The translations under genes and the position numbers were made by a program. Below are positions 9,731-52,638 of a DNA stretch of 64,000 nucleotides, in pieces. The stretch spans positions 145,691 to 209,690 of the forward strand of contig DASTHW010000014.1 in the NCBI GenBank assembly GCA_035717985.1, written 5' to 3'. Each line of letters begins with the position of its first letter. The stretch's first letter is position 1. This DNA is from Candidatus Saccharimonadales bacterium. Lineage in GTDB: Bacteria; Patescibacteriota; Saccharimonadia; Saccharimonadales; UBA10212. The notes under the pieces were generated by a model. It was not told the origin of the DNA. It saw only the letters and a list, made by a program, of their open reading frames with translations, and did no database searches.

Positions 9731-10930
9731 GTGGAAATGGATTTTAAACAACTAGCCCAAGCTATTAGAGTAATAGCCGAGGAAAAAAACTTGCCGGAAG
9801 ACCAGGTAGCCGATGTAGTTCAGCAGGCCCTAGCCGCCGCGTGGCGCCGCGATTACGGCGACCGCGAGCAGGAAGTGCGGGTAACTATGAACTTAAATAC
9901 CGGCGAGGTGACAGCCTACGTTACTAAAGAGATTGTTGACGATGTAGAAAACCCCAATACCCAGATAGGCCTATCAGCCGCCCAACTTATCCGTAAAAAT
10001 GCCAAAGTCGGCGAAACGATAGAGCAGAGCCAGAAGGTAGAGGATTTTGGCCGGGTGGCCGCTCAAACCGCCAAACAGGTGATCTTGCAAAGACTGCGCG
10101 AAGCCGAGCGCGAGATTGTGCTGGCTGAATATGAAGATAAGATCGGTGCCCTGGTTAACGGCATCATCAGCCGGGTGGAGGGCCGCTTGGTGCGGGTTGA
10201 ACTGGGCCGGGCACAAGGTATTATGCCGGCCAGTGAACAAATTCAGGGCGAGCGCTACTACCCTGGTCAGCGCCTTAAGTTTTTCTTAAAGGATGTTGAA
10301 AAAGGTTTTCGTGGGCCCCAGCTGATAGTCAGCCGCGGTAACCGAGAGTTTGTAGAGCAGTTATTCCGCGGCGAGGTCCCGGAAATGGAAAATAACTCTG
10401 TCGAAATTAAGGAAATCGCCCGTGAAGCCGGCGTTAGATCTAAAATCGCTGTGGCCAGTAGCGTGCCGGGCGTGGATCCAGTTGGTACTTTTGTGGGCGG
10501 CCACGGTACCCGCATTAACGCCGTTCGAGACGAGATTGGCAGTCAAGAGATGATAGACATAGTGGTTTGGGATGAGGACCCGGCTACCTTCATTTCTAAC
10601 GCTATGAAGCCGGCTAACATAGCTAAGGTGGAACTTGATGAGTCCAATAAAAAGGCAAGGGTAATTGTAGCGGAAGACCAGCTATCGATTGCCATTGGTA
10701 AATCCGGTCAAAATGTCCGCCTGGCCGGCAAGCTTACCGGTTACGACCTAGACGTCGAAGCCGAAAAGACAGAGGGAGCGGCCGAGCCTAAAGCTGGCGG
10801 CGAGGAAGCTCAGGCCCGCCCGGTGGTGCAAAAGCTGAAGAAAAAGAGCGAGCTGGAGTCCAGCCTGCTATCAGCTATCGAAGAGCACGGCACCGACAGC
10901 GAGCCGCAAAAAGACGAGCAAGCAAAGTAA
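9731..10930 (+). CDS. nusA: transcription termination/antitermination factor NusA
   Basis: 399 aa with the NusA N-terminus, S1 and two KH regions (PQLIVSRGNREFVEQLF, SIAIGKSGQNVRLAGKLTG) and an acidic tail. The start is GTG 9731 or ATG 9737. Confidence 0.93.
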   Translation: MEMDFKQLAQAIRVIAEEKNLPEDQVADVVQQALAAAWRRDYGDREQEVRVTMNLNTGEVTAYVTKEIVDDVENPNTQIGLSAAQLIRKNAKVGETIEQSQKVEDFGRVAAQTAKQVILQRLREAEREIVLAEYEDKIGALVNGIISRVEGRLVRVELGRAQGIMPASEQIQGERYYPGQRLKFFLKDVEKGFRGPQLIVSRGNREFVEQLFRGEVPEMENNSVEIKEIAREAGVRSKIAVASSVPGVDPVGTFVGGHGTRINAVRDEIGSQEMIDIVVWDEDPATFISNAMKPANIAKVELDESNKKARVIVAEDQLSIAIGKSGQNVRLAGKLTGYDLDVEAEKTEGAAEPKAGGEEAQARPVVQKLKKKSELESSLLSAIEEHGTDSEPQKDEQAK

Positions 10931-11337: not shown

Positions 11338-11377
11338 GGCGAGAACTAAAATTCTATAATTTAAATTGACGCCTGAA

Positions 11378-11404
11378 TTAGCACTCTTGACTTGAGAGTG
11401 CTAA
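11378..11404. promoter_or_regulatory. CIRCE inverted repeat (HrcA operator consensus) upstream of clpC
   Basis: TTAGCACTC-TTGACTTGA-GAGTGCTAA is an exact match to the TTAGCACTC-N9-GAGTGCTAA consensus. It is part of a 30-nt block identical to 35333-35362. Confidence 0.85.
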
Positions 11405-11535
11405 TTCGTGATATCATGAATAGGTACTTTTGACGTTTCAGTTAAAGACCTTACAGCTAGTCTTAAGCACTAAAAATAGAATAAACTCGAATGAGAATTC
11501 TTTAAGTAAATAGAAAGGATTCAAAGTATAAGCCT

Positions 11536-14025
11536 ATGATGCCAAATAGCCCAGATTTTCAAGATTTTTTGAGCCATTTAACCAATAACGCTTTGCATAG
11601 CCTAAAGCACGCTGACGCTATTGCCCGCGCCAGCGGCAGTGCCTATATTGGCACCGAGCATCTACTTTTAGGAATTTTGGCTCAAGAGGGCTCGATGGGC
11701 TCTAAGATTCTTAGCGGCGTAGGCGTAACACTTGACCGGGCCCGTTTGGCGCTGAATCTAACCCCTAAAACCTTAGTTATAAGTATGGGCGCAAAGGGTC
11801 TGTCTGAGACTGCTAAACTGACGCTTAAAATGGCCTGGGAAATTGCCCAGGAATTTAACCAGGACTTCTGTGGTACCGAGCACGTTTTATACAGTATTTT
11901 GAGCCAAAAGAATGCTCGGGCGACTACGCTACTGCGCGATATGAGTGTAGATGTGGATCAATTGTCCAGCGAGGTGGAGCAGTTTTTAAACCGTCAGCAA
12001 TACGAAGAGGAAGGCCGGCTGACCGGCACGGCTGGCCGCGCTAAAGGCGGCAAAAAGACAGCCTTAGAATTTTACGGGACTGATTTAACCGATCTTGCCC
12101 GCCAGGGCAAATTAGACCCGGTGGTGGGCCGTGAAGCCCAGATCCGCCGGCTAATTACCATTCTTAACCGGCGCACCAAAAACAACCCCGTGCTGATTGG
12201 CGAGCCCGGCGTTGGTAAAACGGCCATCGTGGAGGGTATTGCCCAGCGTATTGTCAATGAAGAGGTACCCGACAGTCTGCTGGATAAGCGGATTATTACT
12301 TTAGATCTTGCCGGCATGATAGCCGGTACCAAGTACCGCGGTGAGTTTGAGGAACGTCTGAAAAAAATCCTAGCTGAACTAGAAAAGGATAAAAATATTA
12401 TTGTCTTTATTGACGAGCTTCACCTGATAGTCGGCGCCGGCGCCGCCGAAGGCTCTATGGACGCCGGCAATATGCTTAAACCTTCACTCGCTCGAGGCAA
12501 GATCCGGATGATTGGCGCTACCACTACTGATGAATATTCCAAATACATTGAAAAAGATGCCGCCCTAGAGCGCCGCTTTCAGCCGGTACAGGTGCCGGAA
12601 ACTACACCTAGCGAAACAGTAGCCATTTTGAAAGGCCTACGCAAGCATTACGAGGAATTCCACGGAGTGAAAGTTAGTGACGAAGTGTTATCTGATACTG
12701 TCCAGTTTGCCCGCCGCTATATAAATGACCGCTATATGCCCGATAAAGCCATTGACCTGCTGGACGAGACAGCCGCTTACCTACGCGTCAACAAGGGTAA
12801 AACTCCACCGGAAATGCGGGCTCTGCAAAAAGAGCTAAAGCTGGTTAATACCCGCATTGAAGAAGCCGTAGACAATGAAGATTACGAAAAGGCGGCCCGC
12901 GAAAAACAGCAGGCCAGCCGATTGGGCGAACAAATTAAAGAAATGGAAGCCAAACACCGCACCGGTAAGCCGATTCAGCTGACGTCTGATGATGTAGCCG
13001 AGACCGTAGCCCGGATGACCGGCGTGCCGGTAACTAAAGTGATTAAAAGTGAGGCTAAATATCTGGTTAACCTGGAAAAGAACTTGAGCCGCTATATCAT
13101 CGGCCAGGACGAGGCCGTAGCCACCGTGGCCGGGGCCGTGCGCCGAAGCCGCTCCGGTATTGCCAGTGAAAAGCGTCCGATTGGCTCATTCATATTCCTC
13201 GGCCCAACCGGTGTTGGTAAGACCGAACTGGCTAGAGTTTTAGCCCGTGAGTTTTTTGGTAGTGATAATGCCTTAGTTAAGATCGATATGAGTGAGTTCG
13301 GCGAGCACCACACTGTATCTAGACTAGTTGGCGCTCCGGCCGGTTATGTAGGCTACGATGACGGCGGCCAGCTGACTGATAAAATCCGCCGCCAGCCCTA
13401 TAGCGTGGTGCTGTTTGACGAAATTGAAAAGGCCCACCCTGACGTCTTTAATATGCTCCTGCAAATTCTAGAAGACGGTGTTTTGTCTGACGCTAAGGGC
13501 CGTAAAATTGACTTTACTAATACCATTGTCATCATGACCAGCAACATTGGTGCCGAGAAACTGCAAAAAGAAGCTAACTTTGGCTTTTCTGCTAACAAAG
13601 CCGCTGACCTGAATAACCTGGACGAACTGCATGAGGCCAACAAAGATAAGGTTAATGACGAGCTTAAGAAAATATTGCGCCCAGAACTACTCAACCGGAT
13701 TGATAAAGTCATAGTCTTTAGGGCTCTGACTAAAAAAGACGCTCTAGCTATTTTGGATCTGCAGTTAGACGATTTACGTAATCGCCTAGTCAAAAAGGGC
13801 ATTGGCTTGCAGGTTAGCAAAGCCGCCAAAGAATACCTGCTTGAAGAGGGCTATGACGCTCATAACGGCGCCCGGCCGATGCGGCGTCTGCTCGCCGAAA
13901 CGCTTGAAGATGCTATTGCCGCTGGCCTACTGGACGACAGTTACCACAAGGGTGATGTTGTAACGGTAAGTACCCGGCAAAATAAGGCGCGAAAAGAGCT
14001 GGCTTACAGTTCGCAAGTTGAATAA
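11536..14025 (+). CDS. clpC: ATP-dependent Clp protease ATP-binding subunit ClpC
   Basis: 829 aa with Clp_N repeats, two AAA+ modules ([16 protein letters not shown]), a UVR-like segment ([12 protein letters not shown]) and an xGF loop (NFGF) for ClpP docking. Confidence 0.92.
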
Positions 14026-14046: not shown

Positions 14047-15009
14047 ATGCGCCGCTATTTAAAGATTCTGTCAGTTGGTGGCCTGTTGGCTATAATTGTC
14101 TTGCTGATTATGGCCCTGACTCACCTCCAGGCCATAGAAGATTGGCAAAAATTACGTGGCTATAACCCGCCGGCGGCTATTACGGAACTAGCCGATCAAG
14201 ACACTATGACGGCCTATACGCGACATGTTTTTTACGTAAATCATCCGCAGATTGTTAGCGGGGTAGCTAACTTTCGCAAGGATTGCCCGGAAAGCGAGCA
14301 GACCATCGTGCTGGGCTGTTACCGATCTGGCCAAAACGGCATCTTTATTTATAATGTGCCCAATTCCCAGCTTTACGGCATTGCCCAGGTAACAGCCGCG
14401 CACGAAGTTCTGCACGCTGCCTATGCCCGTTTGAGCTCTAAAGACAAAGCCTATGTAGACGGCTTACTGCAGGATTATTACAAGCACGACTTAACCGATC
14501 AGCGGATTTTGGGTGAGATAAAACTCTATAAGCAAACCGAGCCAAACAACGTTGTCGATGAAATGCATTCAGTTTTTGGTACCGAGGCGGACAACTTACC
14601 TAAGCCACTGGAGAATTATTACAAACGCTATTTTTCTAACCGGTCGGTTATTGTTAACTTTAGCCAAAACTATCAATCTGAATTTGCCAGCCGCATCAAC
14701 CGAGTAAAGGCAGACGACCAAAAACTAGCCGCCATGAAGGCTCAAATTGACGCCCTGGAGCAGTCTTTAAACAGTCAGCTGACAGTCATCCAGTCTCAAC
14801 GGGCTCAGGTGCAATCTAGTAATGACCCAGGCCAAATTAACCGCTACAACGCCGAAGTCACGGCTTACAATAACGGAGTCGCTGATTTGCAAAGTCAAAT
14901 TAGCACCTATAACCAATTGGTCGATGAGCGTAATGCCATTGCGGCCGACATCGCCAGTTTACAAAATTCTATTGATACGCGCCTTCAGCCCAAGGCCAAG
15001 GCCCAGTAA
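14047..15009 (+). CDS. membrane-anchored hypothetical protein with HExxH motif and Q-rich coiled-coil tail
   Basis: 320 aa with an N-terminal TM helix (ILSVGGLLAIIVLLIMAL) and AAHEVLHAAY (HExxH). The C-terminal ~100 aa show a heptad-like Q/A/L pattern. Confidence 0.6.
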   Translation: MRRYLKILSVGGLLAIIVLLIMALTHLQAIEDWQKLRGYNPPAAITELADQDTMTAYTRHVFYVNHPQIVSGVANFRKDCPESEQTIVLGCYRSGQNGIFIYNVPNSQLYGIAQVTAAHEVLHAAYARLSSKDKAYVDGLLQDYYKHDLTDQRILGEIKLYKQTEPNNVVDEMHSVFGTEADNLPKPLENYYKRYFSNRSVIVNFSQNYQSEFASRINRVKADDQKLAAMKAQIDALEQSLNSQLTVIQSQRAQVQSSNDPGQINRYNAEVTAYNNGVADLQSQISTYNQLVDERNAIAADIASLQNSIDTRLQPKAKAQ

Positions 15010-15086: not shown

Positions 15087-16433
15087 ATGGCTAAGAAAAC
15101 TTTGGGGGTTCGCTTTGTTTGTAGTGCCTGCGGTGCCGAGTATTTATCCTGGACCGGTAAATGCCAGACCTGCGGGCAGTGGAATAGCCTGACCGAGCAG
15201 GTCCAAATATCGGCTGAATCAGCCGGCACCAGCGGGATACGCCTGGCTTCCGAATCTATTGCTAAGGCTGTGACTGATGACGCCAAAAGGCTATTGACCG
15301 GCATTGGCGGGGTAGATGAGGTCTTAGGCGGAGGTTTAGTCGCCGGTAGTGTTAATTTGCTGGCCGGTCAGCCCGGTATCGGTAAAAGTACGCTCTTACT
15401 CCAAATAGCCCATAACGCGGCTAGCCGGCACAAGGTTCTATATGTTAGCGGCGAAGAATCCGTCCGCCAAATAGCCCTTCGGGCTCAGCGGCTGGGGACT
15501 CGCGCCAGCAATCTCCAGCTGGCGGTGTCGGCTAGCGCCAATGACGTCTCGGCTACCATTGCCGCCGGCCAATTTGATTTAGTGATAGTAGATTCCATCC
15601 AGACCATGGCAGTAGCTGAAGTCGCCTCGCCGGCCGGCTCGGTTAGCCAAATTACCAATAGTACTCAACTGCTTAGCGCTGGCGCAAAAGCCACGGGCAC
15701 GGCCCTGATATTGGTCGGACACGTCACTAAAGAGGGCTCCATCGCCGGCCCCAAAGTGTTGGAGCACGTAGTTGACGTGGTCTTACAGCTAGAGGGAGAC
15801 CGCTATGGCGGCTTCAAAATCCTGCGCGGTGTTAAAAACCGCTATGGCTCCACTAACGAGACGGCTATTTTTGAAATGAGCGACAAGGGCCTATCCTTAG
15901 TAGACAACCCATCTTCGGCCTTACTGGCAGAGCGTCAAGCTAGCGATGGTTCGATTGTCCATGCCTGCCTGGAGGGTAGCCGGGCTATCCTGGTAGAAAT
16001 TCAGGCACTAGTTAATCGTACTAGCTATGGCTACCCCAAGCGTACGGCCAGCGGCATCGATTTAAATCGTATTAATCTACTGATTGCCATGTTGGAGAGA
16101 CGGACTAAACTAAAACTGGCCGATAAGGACATCTACGTTAACGTCGTTGGCGGCATAAAGTTAACCGAGCCGGCGGCCGACCTGGCGGTCTGCATGGCTA
16201 TTGCTAGTGCTGACCGAGGCATGCAGTTATCGAAGAACTTAGTAGTGTTTGGCGAAGTCGGTTTAGCTGGCGAAGTGCGTCATGTGCCGCAAATTGAAAA
16301 GCGTCTAGTGGAGGCTAAAAAATTGGGTTTTGATGGTGCCGTTGGCCCGCTGGTGCGCTCCGGCAAAAAGCCAGCTGGCCTGTCGACGGTGAGTGACGTC
16401 CGCTCAGCCCTCAATAGCTTTTTAGAAGACTAA
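15087..16433 (+). CDS. radA: DNA repair protein RadA/Sms
   Basis: 448 aa with a zinc ribbon (CSACGAEYLSWTGKCQTCGQWNS), Walker A (GQPGIGKST), KNRYG and a Lon-like C-terminal domain. TATAAT at 15075-15080 lies 6 nt before the ATG. Confidence 0.95.
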   Translation: MAKKTLGVRFVCSACGAEYLSWTGKCQTCGQWNSLTEQVQISAESAGTSGIRLASESIAKAVTDDAKRLLTGIGGVDEVLGGGLVAGSVNLLAGQPGIGKSTLLLQIAHNAASRHKVLYVSGEESVRQIALRAQRLGTRASNLQLAVSASANDVSATIAAGQFDLVIVDSIQTMAVAEVASPAGSVSQITNSTQLLSAGAKATGTALILVGHVTKEGSIAGPKVLEHVVDVVLQLEGDRYGGFKILRGVKNRYGSTNETAIFEMSDKGLSLVDNPSSALLAERQASDGSIVHACLEGSRAILVEIQALVNRTSYGYPKRTASGIDLNRINLLIAMLERRTKLKLADKDIYVNVVGGIKLTEPAADLAVCMAIASADRGMQLSKNLVVFGEVGLAGEVRHVPQIEKRLVEAKKLGFDGAVGPLVRSGKKPAGLSTVSDVRSALNSFLED

Positions 16434-28367: not shown

Positions 28368-28498
28368 GCGTCTTTTGCTTTTCCGCTTGTCTTATTCCTC
28401 AAGACAAGCGGGTCCCTAGATTACGCTGGACCATAAGCGGTATGTACTGGCTCGCTTGGTTAGTATATGATTGCTCATAAAGTAACAAGGTGGATGCA

Positions 28499-29722
28499 AT
28501 GCAGGAAGAATTAAATCAGGGTGAGCAAGTTCAGCCAGGCGCCGAGCCAGCTAAAAGTCAACCTAGTGCCGGCGGGCCGGAGCCTAAGTTAAGCGCTTTT
28601 TCGGGCCTATCCGGCAATGAAATGTTCTGCGTAGATTTAATAGGCTATAAACCCGGCAATCTGCTGGTGGGTAACAGCATATTTTCAATGGGCGTGCTGG
28701 GCGGCCTAAAAAGCCTAGGCAGGGGTTTTATTGGCGGCGAAGTAAAATCCTTCACCGAGATGATAGCTGAGGGCCGGCGCCTGTCTTTTGAGCGTCTAGC
28801 CGGCGAAATGGAGTCAAATAATGCTCACGGCGTCAGCGGTGTGGGTAGTGAGCTGGTCTTTCACGGCACCAACGCCGAATTTTTATCAATCGGCTCGGCA
28901 CTGCACGCCAAAAACCAGGCCTCCGGCCAGGCATTTACCTCTTCATCTGACGGCCAGGAGCTATTTTGTCAGGTAGACGTCGGCTATGAGCCGAAGTCTT
29001 TTGTTTTTGGCAATGTGGCTTACTCTATTGGTGTTAGCCGGGGCATAACCGGTGCCTTTAAAAAGCTGGTTAAAGGCGAGGTCCGCCAGTACACCGAGAT
29101 TTTTACCAGCACCAGGAATCTAGCCCTGCAGAGGATAACCGACGAAGCCAAAGCGGCCGGTGCCAACGCCGTAGTCGGCATTAGAACCAGCATTTTGCCT
29201 TACGGTACCACTGGCGTGCAGGAAATGGTAATGATAGGTACCGCCTCGACTCACGCCCTGGCAGATCATGCCCGCCCCGGCGGCGTAATTACCAGCGACT
29301 TAACAGCTGAAGAAATGTGGAACGTAGCCAAAATGGGCTACATGCCTCAACAGCTGGTGATTGGTACATCGGTTTACTCGGTTGGGTTTGTGGGCGGCTT
29401 TAAGTCCTTCCTGCGCGGGTTTGTGAAGGGAGAGATTACCGAAATGACTCAGCTGATTTACGGTGCCCGCGAAGAATCACTAAAGAAGGTCCAAGCCCAG
29501 GCCGACGAGCTGGGGGCCGACGACGTGCTGGGTCTGCGCACCTATATTTATAGTCTTGGCGGCGGGCTGATTGAATTTTTGGTGATTGGCACGGCTGTTA
29601 AAAAAGTTGAAGGTATTAAAACTCGGTCTGAGCAGTTACCGCCGCAGGCTATCATCCGCGACAAAGATACCTTTGTAAACCGGGTGGTCTACGGCGTAGA
29701 TTTAAACATGCAGGGCGCCTAA
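28499..29722 (+). CDS. protein made of three tandem YbjQ/UPF0145 (DUF74)-like repeats
   Basis: Three ~105-aa repeats each read (F/M)xxxxxGYxP...G.S.(F/Y)S.G...G...(F/L)..GE(V/I)...T......R......(L/I)...A...GA(N/D)(A/D)V(V/L)G(I/L)R. ATG 28499 follows an AAGGTGG SD; GTG 28490 is an alternative start. Confidence 0.8.
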   Translation: MQEELNQGEQVQPGAEPAKSQPSAGGPEPKLSAFSGLSGNEMFCVDLIGYKPGNLLVGNSIFSMGVLGGLKSLGRGFIGGEVKSFTEMIAEGRRLSFERLAGEMESNNAHGVSGVGSELVFHGTNAEFLSIGSALHAKNQASGQAFTSSSDGQELFCQVDVGYEPKSFVFGNVAYSIGVSRGITGAFKKLVKGEVRQYTEIFTSTRNLALQRITDEAKAAGANAVVGIRTSILPYGTTGVQEMVMIGTASTHALADHARPGGVITSDLTAEEMWNVAKMGYMPQQLVIGTSVYSVGFVGGFKSFLRGFVKGEITEMTQLIYGAREESLKKVQAQADELGADDVLGLRTYIYSLGGGLIEFLVIGTAVKKVEGIKTRSEQLPPQAIIRDKDTFVNRVVYGVDLNMQGA

Positions 29723-33045: not shown

Positions 33046-33360
33046 ATGCCTAGTAGTGAGCTTTCTAGAGTGTTTTGCTATGTCTATGTTTTATACTCTG
33101 AAAAGAGCAATAATTTATATGTCGGTTTCACCCATGATTTGCGGGCTCGATTGGCAAAACACAATAATGGCTTAAATTTTTCTACAAAACCATATCGTCC
33201 CTGGAGCCTTATTTATTATGAGGCGCATACTAAAGAATCTGATGCCAAAAGACGCGAACGATACCTTAAGACAACGGCAGGAGACCGAGCTTTACGAAGA
33301 ATGCTGAGAGAAAAGCTAAATGGAGTTAAAAATTTAAGTCGCCAGAAAGTCTACTACTAG
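33046..33360 (+). CDS. stand-alone GIY-YIG nuclease-domain protein
   Basis: 104 aa with YVYVLYSEKSNNLYVGFTHDLRARLAKHN...YYE....A..RE..LK. GC is visibly lower than in hisS and tig. Confidence 0.85.
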   Translation: MPSSELSRVFCYVYVLYSEKSNNLYVGFTHDLRARLAKHNNGLNFSTKPYRPWSLIYYEAHTKESDAKRRERYLKTTAGDRALRRMLREKLNGVKNLSRQKVYY

Positions 33361-35161: not shown

Positions 35162-35311
35162 ATGAGTGAGAGCCGGCCAATCATATTATTTGGGGTGGTT
35201 ATCTTCATCGTTTTGGCAATAATAATCGGAATTGCCGCTAGCCAGCCCAGCAGTAATAACCTAACGGCTGTAGACAAATCTGGCACCCATTCCCCGCATG
35301 ACGGCAAGTAA
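35162..35311 (+). CDS. candidate 49-aa single-TM small protein (below ORF-track cutoff)
   Basis: My own translation is MSESRPIILFGVVIFIVLAIIIGIAASQPSSNNLTAVDKSGTHSPHDGK. An AAAGGA SD lies 5 nt upstream. It explains the region better than the antisense 80-aa ORF. Confidence 0.45.
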   Translation: MSESRPIILFGVVIFIVLAIIIGIAASQPSSNNLTAVDKSGTHSPHDGK

Positions 35312-35333
35312 GCAGGACGGCTACCGGACCGGA

Positions 35334-35360
35334 TTAGCACTCTTGACTTGAGAGTGCTAA
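35334..35360. promoter_or_regulatory. CIRCE inverted repeat embedded in the clpP promoter
   Basis: TTAGCACTC-TTGACTTGA-GAGTGCTAA. The spacer TTGACT (35343-35348), 17 nt and TACAAT (35366-35371) form a promoter. The ATG at 35380 lies 8 nt after the -10 box. Confidence 0.85.
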
Positions 35361-35379
35361 TTTCATACAATAAATACAT

Positions 35380-36018
35380 ATGGATAGTACCGTTAAACCC
35401 ACTTCGCAGATTTTAGTTCCCACCGTCATTGAGCAAGAGGGCCGCATGGAGCGCGCCTACGATATCTATAGCCGTCTTTTAAAAGACCGGGTTATCTTCC
35501 TGGGCGATGACGTTAATGAGCACACCGCCAATCTAGTGGTTGCCCAAATGCTGTTTTTGGAAAACCAAGATGCCAACAAAGACATTATCCTTTATATCAA
35601 CAGCCCCGGCGGTAGCGTTTATGACGCCATGGCTATTTATGACACCATGCAGTTTGTGAAAAGTGATATCCAGACCGTGGGTATTGGCGTGCAGGCCAGT
35701 GCCGCCGCTTTTCTACTGAGCTCCGGCACTAAAGGTAAAAGGCTGTTACTGCCGCATGCCACCGTAATGATCCATCAGCCCAGCTCCGGCACCCGTGGTA
35801 AAGTAACCGATCAGGAAATCGATCTGCGCGAAGCCCTGCGCGTTAAGAAAATGCTGGAAGAAATTATGGCGCGTAACACCGGTCAGAAGCTGGAAAAAAT
35901 CCATCACGACATGGAGCGTGATTTTTGGATGACTGCGGAAGAAGCTAAGAAGTACGGCTTGGTTGATAAAATTGTCGACAGCCGCAAACTAGCCGACTCC
36001 ATCCCCAAAAAAGCCTAA
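35380..36018 (+). CDS. clpP: ATP-dependent Clp protease proteolytic subunit
   Basis: 212 aa with [30 protein letters not shown]. The catalytic Ser (GVQASAAAF), His (MIHQP) and Asp (ERDFWM) contexts are present. Confidence 0.95.
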
Positions 36019-50684: not shown

Positions 50685-51632
50685 ATGAGAGGTGAGGAGA
50701 AAACAGCTTTTGGCTTTCCAGGTCAAGGAGCGGATTATTCGGAGCTGGTCCGGGACTTAACCGACGAGAACATTGTAGGTCAGGAAACGGCCGATATTGC
50801 CAATGAGGTTATTGGTGAGGTTAGTGACGCCTCGGAAGTAGATGTTTTAAAGCTGGCTCGAGAGGGCACTGAAGACGAGCGGGTCGACACCAGAAACGCC
50901 CAAATTATTCTACTAGCCGGCGGTGCCGCCGGGGCGGCCTACTTAATGAAGAAGCGAAAGATTAACCCAGATTTCGTGCGGGGCCATAGTGCGGCCGCTT
51001 TTACGGCGGCGGCCGTCGGCGGCGCTTTAGCTTTACGTCAAGCCGCCATTGCTATCAAGGAACGGGGCATTTCGATGCATGAAGCGTCCATTGAACATCC
51101 AGGTGGGATGGCCGCCGTTAAAGACATCTCTTTAGAGAGACTAGATACCATCTGCCAAAACGTCGGAGCTTTTATCTCTAATTTAAATTCACCTATTCAA
51201 ACCATTATCGCCGGACCGCACGAGGCGCTGGAGGAAGCCAAGAAGAAAATTACTCAGGCTGGCGGCAAAGCTACGCTTTTCCGTAATTGGAAAGCCGGAA
51301 TTGCTCATACACCCCATGTAATGGTGGTCCAGGAGAGGTTAAATGAGATCCTGGGACCCAATATCGTCAGCGACTCAACAATTGCGGTAGTTAAAAACAG
51401 AGATGGTAAAGCCACCAAAGAGGCTGAGCAAATCCGCCAAGACTTAACCGCCGCCGCCGAACAGGTCAGATGGGCCGCCGGCACCGAGACTCTAGATGAG
51501 GAAGGCGTAGTCCGGCATATAGAGGTCAGCTCTAAAAGCAAGAGGGTTATATCCAATCTGCTGAAGGAGCATGACCTGAGAGAAGGCGTCGAGATTGAAC
51601 ATATCAGCGAATTAATGGACGAGGAGAAATAA
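50685..51632 (+). CDS. divergent FabD-like acyltransferase (malonyl-CoA:ACP transacylase fold)
   Basis: 315 aa with FPGQGADY (canonical GQGSQ), GHSAAAF (canonical GHSLGE), ERGISM and AHTPHVM. It appears to have its own promoter with the ATG close to the -10 box. Confidence 0.75.
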   Translation: MRGEEKTAFGFPGQGADYSELVRDLTDENIVGQETADIANEVIGEVSDASEVDVLKLAREGTEDERVDTRNAQIILLAGGAAGAAYLMKKRKINPDFVRGHSAAAFTAAAVGGALALRQAAIAIKERGISMHEASIEHPGGMAAVKDISLERLDTICQNVGAFISNLNSPIQTIIAGPHEALEEAKKKITQAGGKATLFRNWKAGIAHTPHVMVVQERLNEILGPNIVSDSTIAVVKNRDGKATKEAEQIRQDLTAAAEQVRWAAGTETLDEEGVVRHIEVSSKSKRVISNLLKEHDLREGVEIEHISELMDEEK

Positions 51633-51636
51633 ACCC

Positions 51637-52638
51637 ATGAGTGAAATACCTATTATAATTGCCAGAAATCCCGGCCAGGGTTCACAGTATCAGGGCATGG
51701 GCGAGGTGGCGGGGGACTGCGCCTGGGCTCAGTATACTTTTGACGAGGCCACCGAAATATTAGCTAAAGATAACCGGCTGTACGAGGGTAGCCGTATTGA
51801 TATCCGTTGGCTGGTAACTGAAGCCGACGACGAAACGCTCGCTCAAAACCATCTAACTCAACTGGCCATTTTTGCTTCTACCATAGCCGCCCAACGGCGG
51901 CTGAGTGTCGAACAACCGGATATGGGAGCCGACATTTGGGCCGGCCACAGCATTGGCGAGTACGCCGGTTTAGTAGATGCTGGCGTTTTAAGTTTTGAAG
52001 AGGCTCTACTACTAGTTGATGCCCGCGCACGCTATATGACCAGCGCCGGAGATCTAGCCAGGGCAAAGGGTCAGGAAGGCGGCATTGGTGTAGTGATTGG
52101 CGATCCGGAGGCTGTCGAGAGATCGGCTGGTAAAAACGACGTTTATATTGCCAACTACAACAATCCTAAGCAGACTGGCGTATCTGGCGCTAAAGACGAT
52201 CTAGCCGGCGTTAAAGAGGAGTTTGGCAGTCGATATATAGAGATTCCGGTCAGCGAGGCGGTGCACTCTCCGTTTATGTCCTGGGCGGAATATAAGCTAC
52301 GAAATTACATCGGTGACGGCCACGACTTCAAAGATCCGGCTCCGGAAACTGTGGTTCTAAATTACACCGGCCGCTTTGCCGAGTCCGGACAGGAAATAGC
52401 TCAGAACGCGCCTATGCAGGTTACCAATCCCGTTATGTGGCTCCCCGGCATGGAGCTGGCACTGATTGACTACGTAGATCATGATAATGCTCCCCCGGTT
52501 ATACTGCTCGAAGTGGGCGCTAAAATGGTCTTAAGCGGTATAGATAAACACTTCGCGCGTAGCTATCCAAACGTTAAGATTGTCACTTTTGAGCAGGCTA
52601 TTAAGACCGGTCTAGACCCCGAAAGCCTAGCGGCTTAA
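51637..52638 (+). CDS. FabD-like acyltransferase (malonyl-CoA:ACP transacylase family)
   Basis: 333 aa with PGQGSQYQGMG, the GHSIGEYAGLV nucleophile elbow, an Arg in DARARYM and VHSPFM. The start lies 4 nt after the previous stop. Confidence 0.8.
   Translation: MSEIPIIIARNPGQGSQYQGMGEVAGDCAWAQYTFDEATEILAKDNRLYEGSRIDIRWLVTEADDETLAQNHLTQLAIFASTIAAQRRLSVEQPDMGADIWAGHSIGEYAGLVDAGVLSFEEALLLVDARARYMTSAGDLARAKGQEGGIGVVIGDPEAVERSAGKNDVYIANYNNPKQTGVSGAKDDLAGVKEEFGSRYIEIPVSEAVHSPFMSWAEYKLRNYIGDGHDFKDPAPETVVLNYTGRFAESGQEIAQNAPMQVTNPVMWLPGMELALIDYVDHDNAPPVILLEVGAKMVLSGIDKHFARSYPNVKIVTFEQAIKTGLDPESLAA

Follow-up and report, generated by a model that had tools for sequence, protein, structure and literature searches.

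An operator that classically precedes chaperone operons raises a question when it stands in front of the genes of the Clp protease: which regulator would read it there, and would that regulator tie the protease to the chaperones? We met this question in a 64,000-nucleotide stretch of DNA from a Candidatus Saccharimonadales bacterium (referred to here as the window). Saccharibacteria and other bacteria of the candidate phyla radiation have tiny genomes, and their gene regulation is almost undescribed. Full-text literature searches returned no paper on HrcA or CIRCE in Saccharibacteria, Patescibacteria or the candidate phyla radiation, and clp genes are the textbook targets of CtsR in Firmicutes. 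A preliminary description of the window had noticed a 30-nucleotide block that occurs once upstream of clpC and once upstream of clpP. We consider it highly probable that each copy is an HrcA operator built into a housekeeping-type promoter, through which clpC and clpP are coregulated with the chaperones.

The 30-mer ATTAGCACTCTTGACTTGAGAGTGCTAATT was recovered on the + strand at 11377-11406 and at 35333-35362, exactly where it had been placed before, and the two copies are identical at 30 of 30 positions, including the four unconstrained bases of the spacer. The earlier identification of the core as the exact HrcA operator consensus also held, as TTAGCACTC-N9-GAGTGCTAA is present with 0 mismatches in both copies (11378-11404 and 35334-35360). 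The parts of the two elements are as follows.

11377 to 11406, + strand: 30-nucleotide block, copy 1, made up of the CIRCE core and the flanking A and TT of the family consensus
11378 to 11386, + strand: left arm of CIRCE, TTAGCACTC, clpC copy; GCACTC is the same in all 65 unique sites of relatives
11387 to 11392, + strand: -35-like hexamer TTGACT within the 9-nucleotide spacer (11387-11395), clpC copy, read from the sequence
11396 to 11404, + strand: right arm of CIRCE, GAGTGCTAA, clpC copy
35333 to 35362, + strand: 30-nucleotide block, copy 2
35334 to 35360, + strand: CIRCE core before clpP, with arms at 35334-35342 and 35352-35360

A scan of both strands with up to 3 mismatches found these two CIRCE matches in the 64-kb window and no others. 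Dinucleotide shuffles gave a mean of 0.03 matches per window, and 0 of 100 shuffles gave two. From the last base of the core to the ATG there are 131 nucleotides at clpC and 19 nucleotides at clpP, in agreement with the distances described before (about 130 nucleotides and immediately upstream). Outside the 30-mer, the flanking sequences are dissimilar between the copies (cgcctga before and cgtgatatc after the block at clpC versus ggaccgg and tcatacaat at clpP), which rules out a duplicated segment.

The genes that follow the two copies, all on the same strand as the elements, are listed below.

11536 to 14025, + strand: gene for a clpC-type AAA+ ATPase of 829 amino acids, predicted to open the regulated unit
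14047 to 15009, + strand: open reading frame (ORF) of 320 amino acids with no Pfam or NCBIfam family match, 21 nucleotides past clpC
15087 to 16433, + strand: radA (TIGR00416, above cut-off), 77 nucleotides beyond the 320-amino-acid ORF
35380 to 36018, + strand: clpP (above the NCBIfam subfamily cut-off)

The product of ORF 11536-14025 is a class-I Clp/Hsp100 ATPase. Its middle domain is short, and we take its FGF tripeptide to occupy the loop where ClpC proteins have the ClpP-docking VGF. We assigned it to the ClpC type rather than to ClpB because of the short middle domain and the FGF loop. Judging from the spacing, the 320-amino-acid ORF at 14047-15009 is possibly cotranscribed with clpC from the CIRCE promoter, and radA possibly also belongs to this transcription unit. 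The genes before clpC are nusA and a 111-amino-acid membrane-like ORF without a family match. At clpP, the gene order is hisS, tig, small ORFs, clpP, rpoB and rpoC. None of hrcA, dnaK, dnaJ, groES, groEL or hsp20 is encoded in the 64-kb window, and Rfam lists one tRNA in the window and no other RNA element.

Both copies of the element coincide with promoter-like sequences, as listed below.

35343 to 35371, + strand: sigma-70-type promoter TTGACT-17 nt-TACAAT before clpP, with 10 of 12 matches
11409 to 11417, + strand: extended -10 element TGaTATCAT of the clpC promoter, 19 nucleotides past TTGACT, read from the sequence

The -35 hexamer of the clpP promoter coincides with bases 1 to 6 of the CIRCE spacer, its -10 hexamer lies at 35366-35371, and the promoter scan found no other promoter-like site in the 1.8 kb between 34600 and 36400. 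The clpP ATG starts 8 nucleotides after the -10 hexamer and has no Shine-Dalgarno sequence, from which we predict that the clpP mRNA is leaderless or has a leader of 1 to 3 nucleotides. The clpC promoter was not listed by the scan, which was limited to spacings of 16 to 18 nucleotides. Its predicted transcription start lies near 11424, which would give a leader of about 112 nucleotides, and this leader folds no better than shuffled sequence (z 0.10). Several Nanosyncoccus-type clpC genes in GTDB loci (e.g., L005 and L017) share the predicted leaderless geometry of clpP.

We then compared the upstream regions of clp genes in relatives. A pattern scan of one genome per GTDB species with TTAGCACTC-TTGAC-N4-GAGTGCTAA returned at least 120 loci, about three quarters of which belong to genome bins of Candidatus Saccharibacteria or Saccharimonadales. 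We read these sites with TTGAC pointing forward and classified the first downstream gene. Among the matches listed, 74 sites were labelled Saccharibacteria, and the downstream gene encoded DnaK (28 sites), ClpC (25), an HrcA-like protein (10), ClpP (8) or Hsp20 (3), with no other gene at any of the 74. The best identity to the ClpC of the window among the GTDB matches listed was 76%. The closest proteins found were 92% (ClpP) and 90% (ClpC) identical to those of the window, and the closest ClpP proteins, which come from a large protein collection, are named as Candidatus Saccharibacteria or Saccharimonadales. The dnaJ genes that adjoin dnaK in relatives have a CIRCE of their own, with TTGCA in the spacer.

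A pattern scan finds only loci that have the element, and we therefore also sampled relatives by protein homology alone. For clpC, this sample consisted of 80 metagenome loci with 74 to 90% ClpC identity. A CIRCE with up to 3 mismatches was present 19 to 227 nucleotides upstream of clpC in 76 of the 80, 32 of these being perfect, and the remaining four loci have just 87 to 173 nucleotides of upstream DNA before the contig ends, so that the element was found in 76 of 76 assessable loci. For clpP, we used six independent lineages found by ClpP homology with 83 to 92% identity (P0009, P0080, P0119, P0056, P0089 and P0001), and all six have a CIRCE with 0 or 1 mismatch. These frequencies support the earlier proposal of direct HrcA-type control of the Clp machinery.

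The 65 unique clpC sites show which parts of the element are constrained. GCACTC-N9-GAGTGC is invariant, and only the outer three positions vary (TTA, TTG, CTA or CTG). TTGAC occupies spacer positions 1 to 5 in 51 sites and positions 5 to 9 in 7, and TTGCA is found in 6; overall, a forward TTGAC or TTGCA is present in 64 of the 65 spacers, and the reverse orientation in 0. The motif TGnTAnnnT follows CIRCE in 43 of the 65. The 30-mer of the window is the position-wise consensus of this family and recurs exactly at clpC in L146, L172 and L184. The identity of the two copies, which had been offered as evidence for direct control, is thus real but carries no special weight, and we no longer regard them as an exactly duplicated block, given their unrelated flanks and the recurrence of the same 30-mer at clpC in these three relatives.

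The spacing of the promoter elements differs between the two genes. At clpP, the distance from TTGAC to the -10 hexamer is 17 to 18 nucleotides wherever TTGAC sits in the spacer, which is the behavior expected of a real -35 element. CIRCE ends 23 to 26 nucleotides before the clpP ATG in five of the six lineages, and the -10 hexamer ends 8 to 10 nucleotides before it (L201, L208, L215, L219 and L220); in L218, CIRCE lies about 175 nucleotides upstream of clpP with a 36-codon ORF between them. The role of TTGAC is less certain at clpC, because the distance to the -10 element is 19 nucleotides in the window and 15 to 19 nucleotides in relatives, and the clpC promoter may lean on its extended -10 element.

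The model that we favor starts from observations: the sequence of the element and where it lies, how well it is conserved, which genes have it, and the presence of hrcA in relatives. The inverted repeat of TTAGCACTC and GAGTGCTAA brackets a 9-nucleotide spacer that holds the -35-like TTGACT, with the -10 element 5 to 7 nucleotides past the right arm. An HrcA dimer bound to both arms would cover about -45 to -19, a stretch that at both promoters takes in the -35 and spacer region, and would thereby block RNA polymerase from the promoter. Heat or protein-folding stress would lead to a loss of HrcA activity, and clpP and clpC, the latter perhaps together with the following ORF and radA, would then be transcribed along with dnaK, dnaJ, hrcA-grpE and hsp20. 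HrcA binding at the clpC and clpP sites and the relief of repression by stress are the steps that we infer from the DNA. In this small-genome lineage, chaperones and Clp protease, as two branches of protein quality control, would in this way answer to one repressor. In TM7x transcriptomes, a clp ATPase gene and clpP rise together, in papers that do not discuss regulation; this joint increase gives the HrcA model weak support.

The proposed repressor is encoded in relatives. HrcA-like proteins of 225 to 250 amino acids follow CIRCE in many loci of Saccharibacteria and other Patescibacteria. Pfam assigns them to the families HrcA and HrcA_DNA-bdg, and the winged-helix domain can be aligned with residues 15-98 of Thermotoga maritima HrcA (1STZ), including QPHxSxGRxPTDKxYR. 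At an E value of 1e-10 or lower there were more than 8000 HrcA candidates, and the best 120 of these more than 8000 are all 234 to 246 amino acids long. Several loci connect the repressor gene to its putative targets. In L180, CIRCE-hrcA-grpE (hrcA at 1044-1763) lies directly upstream of CIRCE-clpC, whose product is 75% identical to the ClpC of the window. In L103, to which the HrcA P0164 is linked, CIRCE-clpC is preceded at a distance of about 1.3 kb by an HrcA-like ORF that has a CIRCE of its own; the ClpC of this locus is 74% identical to that of the window. An 851-kb Saccharimonadales contig, L217, has CIRCE-hrcA-grpE (hrcA at 10001-10711) followed by two small ORFs, a tandem CIRCE, dnaK, one ORF and dnaJ, and a short HrcA is also present in L110 and others. 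The longest contig with the HrcA P0123 and the contig of the CIRCE-clpP locus L083 both measure 70,650 bp, so that the two genes probably share a contig. From these relatives, we infer that the genome of the window probably encodes hrcA as well.

Classical HrcA has about 340 amino acids, compared with 225 to 250 in Saccharibacteria and Patescibacteria, and the winged-helix domain of the short form is intact. Compared with the HrcA of Streptococcus (344 to 358 amino acids), the short protein has about 100 residues fewer, spread over the C-terminal region. An AlphaFold2 model of the short HrcA, built with 32 close homologues, reached a mean pLDDT of 41, too poor to locate the missing domain.

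The classical CIRCE of groE and dnaK operons has an operator, TTAGCACTC-N9-GAGTGCTAA, that is identical to the one in the window, and the Saccharibacteria relatives share with the classical system both the predicted autoregulation of hrcA and dnaK as a predicted target. The two arrangements differ in their targets, which in Saccharibacteria include clpC, clpP and, in relatives, hsp20, and in the placement of the -35 element, which in Saccharibacteria lies inside the spacer. In B. subtilis, CIRCE lies downstream of the promoter. They also differ in the length of HrcA (about 100 amino acids shorter here) and in that no groESL target was seen in Patescibacteria among the matches listed.

This last difference bears on how stress might be sensed. 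Among the matches listed from at least 120 loci found with one pattern, no locus of Saccharibacteria or Patescibacteria had groES or groEL behind CIRCE, whereas groEL or groES followed CIRCE in cyanobacterial, Dehalococcoides and Kapaibacterium matches; dnaK, dnaJ and hrcA-grpE have CIRCE in relatives. A groS gene has been reported in some Patescibacteria. Either groESL has an operator with a different spacer, or it is outside the regulon, or it is missing from Saccharibacteria and Patescibacteria genomes. The classical feedback by GroE titration is not to be assumed here, since no groES or groEL target was seen among the Patescibacteria matches listed. A more far-reaching proposal is that a truncated HrcA (about 235 to 245 amino acids, with about 100 C-terminal residues fewer) is the single master regulator of DnaK/DnaJ/GrpE, Hsp20, ClpC and ClpP through promoter-embedded CIRCE in Saccharibacteria, perhaps in Patescibacteria generally, and senses stress without GroEL titration, for instance intrinsically or through feedback from DnaK or ClpCP. 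The part about sensing without a GroEL loop is drawn from the lack of a groESL target among the matches listed. We think this proposal unlikely.

Could HrcA be one of several inputs, with a second regulator of the CtsR, ClgR or alternative-sigma type also driving the clp genes? Dual control by CtsR and HrcA is known in Firmicutes, and the 112-nucleotide clpC leader has room for other signals, but this leader is unstructured and its length is not conserved, CIRCE being 19 to 227 nucleotides from clpC in relatives, and clpP has a single promoter-like site. There is also no CtsR box near clpC or clpP: in the window, the box (A/GGTCAAANANA/GGTCAAA) has 4 weak matches at 3 mismatches, all inside genes, with 1.6 expected. 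The genes ctsR, mcsA and mcsB are absent upstream of clpC in the window. We judge a second regulator to be decidedly unlikely.

The known clp regulons place our favored reading, HrcA control of both clp genes, in context. The CtsR class III regulon of Firmicutes (ctsR-mcsA-mcsB-clpC, clpP and clpE) has the same outputs, clpC and clpP, and the same nonstress repression by a promoter-overlapping repressor, but the repressor family differs and its operator is a heptad direct repeat, which is absent from the window. The clpC-radA linkage is common to the Firmicutes clpC operon and the window, here without ctsR, mcsA and mcsB. In Streptococcus salivarius, CtsR is said to be the main clp regulator, with HrcA as an additional input on clpP. 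The dual regulation of clpP by CtsR and HrcA in that species (Chastanet and Msadek 2003, J Bacteriol 185:683, as cited in PMC3842655) places clpP in an HrcA regulon, as we propose here; the differences are that the window shows neither a CtsR box near the clp genes nor a ctsR gene, and that clpC is also a target. The HrcA regulon of Mycoplasma pneumoniae includes Lon, PepA, Pip, ClpB, DnaK, DnaJ and GroEL/ES (PMC7737663). This bacterium is likewise genome reduced and has HrcA/CIRCE on proteases as well as chaperones, but it belongs to an unrelated phylum, its target is Lon and not ClpCP, and groEL/ES is targeted (PMC7737663). The preliminary description had stated that CIRCE classically controls groESL and dnaK while clp genes are under other regulators; it was right about the canonical targets but overstated the rarity of the clp targets, considering clpP of S. 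salivarius (as cited in PMC3842655) and lon, clpB and pepA of M. pneumoniae (PMC7737663).

It is also conceivable that a regulator different from HrcA recognizes the conserved repeat, or that hrcA was lost from this genome and the sites are relics. There is no hrcA within the 64-kb window, and the HrcA of Patescibacteria is about 100 amino acids shorter than classical HrcA. However, the core is the exact HrcA consensus, the hrcA genes of relatives are preceded by the same element and encode a well-conserved DNA-binding domain, and relics would not be expected to stay perfect at both genes while their flanks diverge. These observations make a different reader or a relic very unlikely.

A perfect 9-bp stem with a 9-nucleotide loop could form from the repeat, and for other bacteria a role of CIRCE within the mRNA has been discussed. 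The repeat might then act as a nucleic-acid hairpin, either as the terminator of the upstream gene or as an mRNA stability element, and not as a protein operator. Neither copy is followed by a T-run, and the terminator scan lists nothing at either copy. The predicted transcription starts lie downstream of the repeat, and the directional content of the spacer also speaks against a hairpin. The outer arm positions vary independently in relatives, without compensatory change (Fisher P values of 0.78 and 0.37), and this lack of covariation speaks for a protein site that tolerates variation and against a hairpin. A hairpin is therefore highly improbable.

The identity at 30 of 30 positions, unconstrained spacer bases included, could also stem from a repeat that is dispersed or mobile, or from recent duplication or gene conversion, in each case without regulatory meaning, but this has a negligible chance of being correct, since there are just two copies in 64 kb with unrelated flanks, all related copies lie at promoters of quality control genes (74 Saccharibacteria sites among the matches listed), the CIRCE pattern has no match in 2.9 million viral contigs and the 30-mer is a family consensus that recurs in relatives. 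We excluded the dispersed or mobile repeat on the two copies with unrelated flanks, the promoter-only distribution and the absence of a viral match.

These results describe a standard operator in a phylum without a described regulon, where it has clp targets that are unusual but not unprecedented, and one repressor probably controls both the chaperones and the main protease across Saccharibacteria. A clean regulon can be predicted from sequence, in which a canonical repressor-operator pair apparently couples the chaperones to ClpCP throughout the group. For organisms that are becoming genetically tractable, this would open a first way into their regulation and supply a stress-responsive promoter for use as a tool. 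The parallel with Mycoplasma is that genome reduction leaves HrcA as a general regulator of proteostasis. The understanding of how HrcA and CIRCE act is unchanged, and the finding is a fairly ordinary extension of a known system.

Several minor observations concern the element in other loci. The dnaK promoters of relatives have tandem CIRCE copies (11906-11932 and 11952-11978 in L217; also in L011, L022, L078 and others), the first copy lying around the -35 element and the other, which is degenerate, past the -10 element; clpC and clpP have a single element. This difference suggests that repression is graded among the genes of the regulon. Outside Saccharibacteria, genes for Clp/Hsp100 ATPases likewise follow a CIRCE whose spacer contains TTGAC, in L004 (Fervidobacterium) and in two loci of other Patescibacteria, L044 and L111. 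The connection of HrcA with a Clp ATPase may therefore predate the Saccharibacteria lineage.

Other observations concern the genes of the window. A 49-codon ORF with a good ribosome-binding site at 35162-35311 (+ strand), which encodes a single hydrophobic helix (MSESRPIILFGVVIFIVLAIIIGIAAS...), sits between the tig-side genes and the clpP operator. The small ORFs at this position differ in relatives, with three in L208 and the 36-codon ORF between CIRCE and clpP in L218. Between hisS and tig, a 104-amino-acid ORF at 33046-33360 (+ strand) has a weak, subthreshold match to the family of group I intron endonucleases of the GIY-YIG type (E 4e-4). Two further features are unusual in a very small genome: a 410-amino-acid protein with two YbjQ_1 domains (28490-29722, + strand) and two adjacent paralogous acyl-transferase (FabD-like) genes (50685-52638, + strand).
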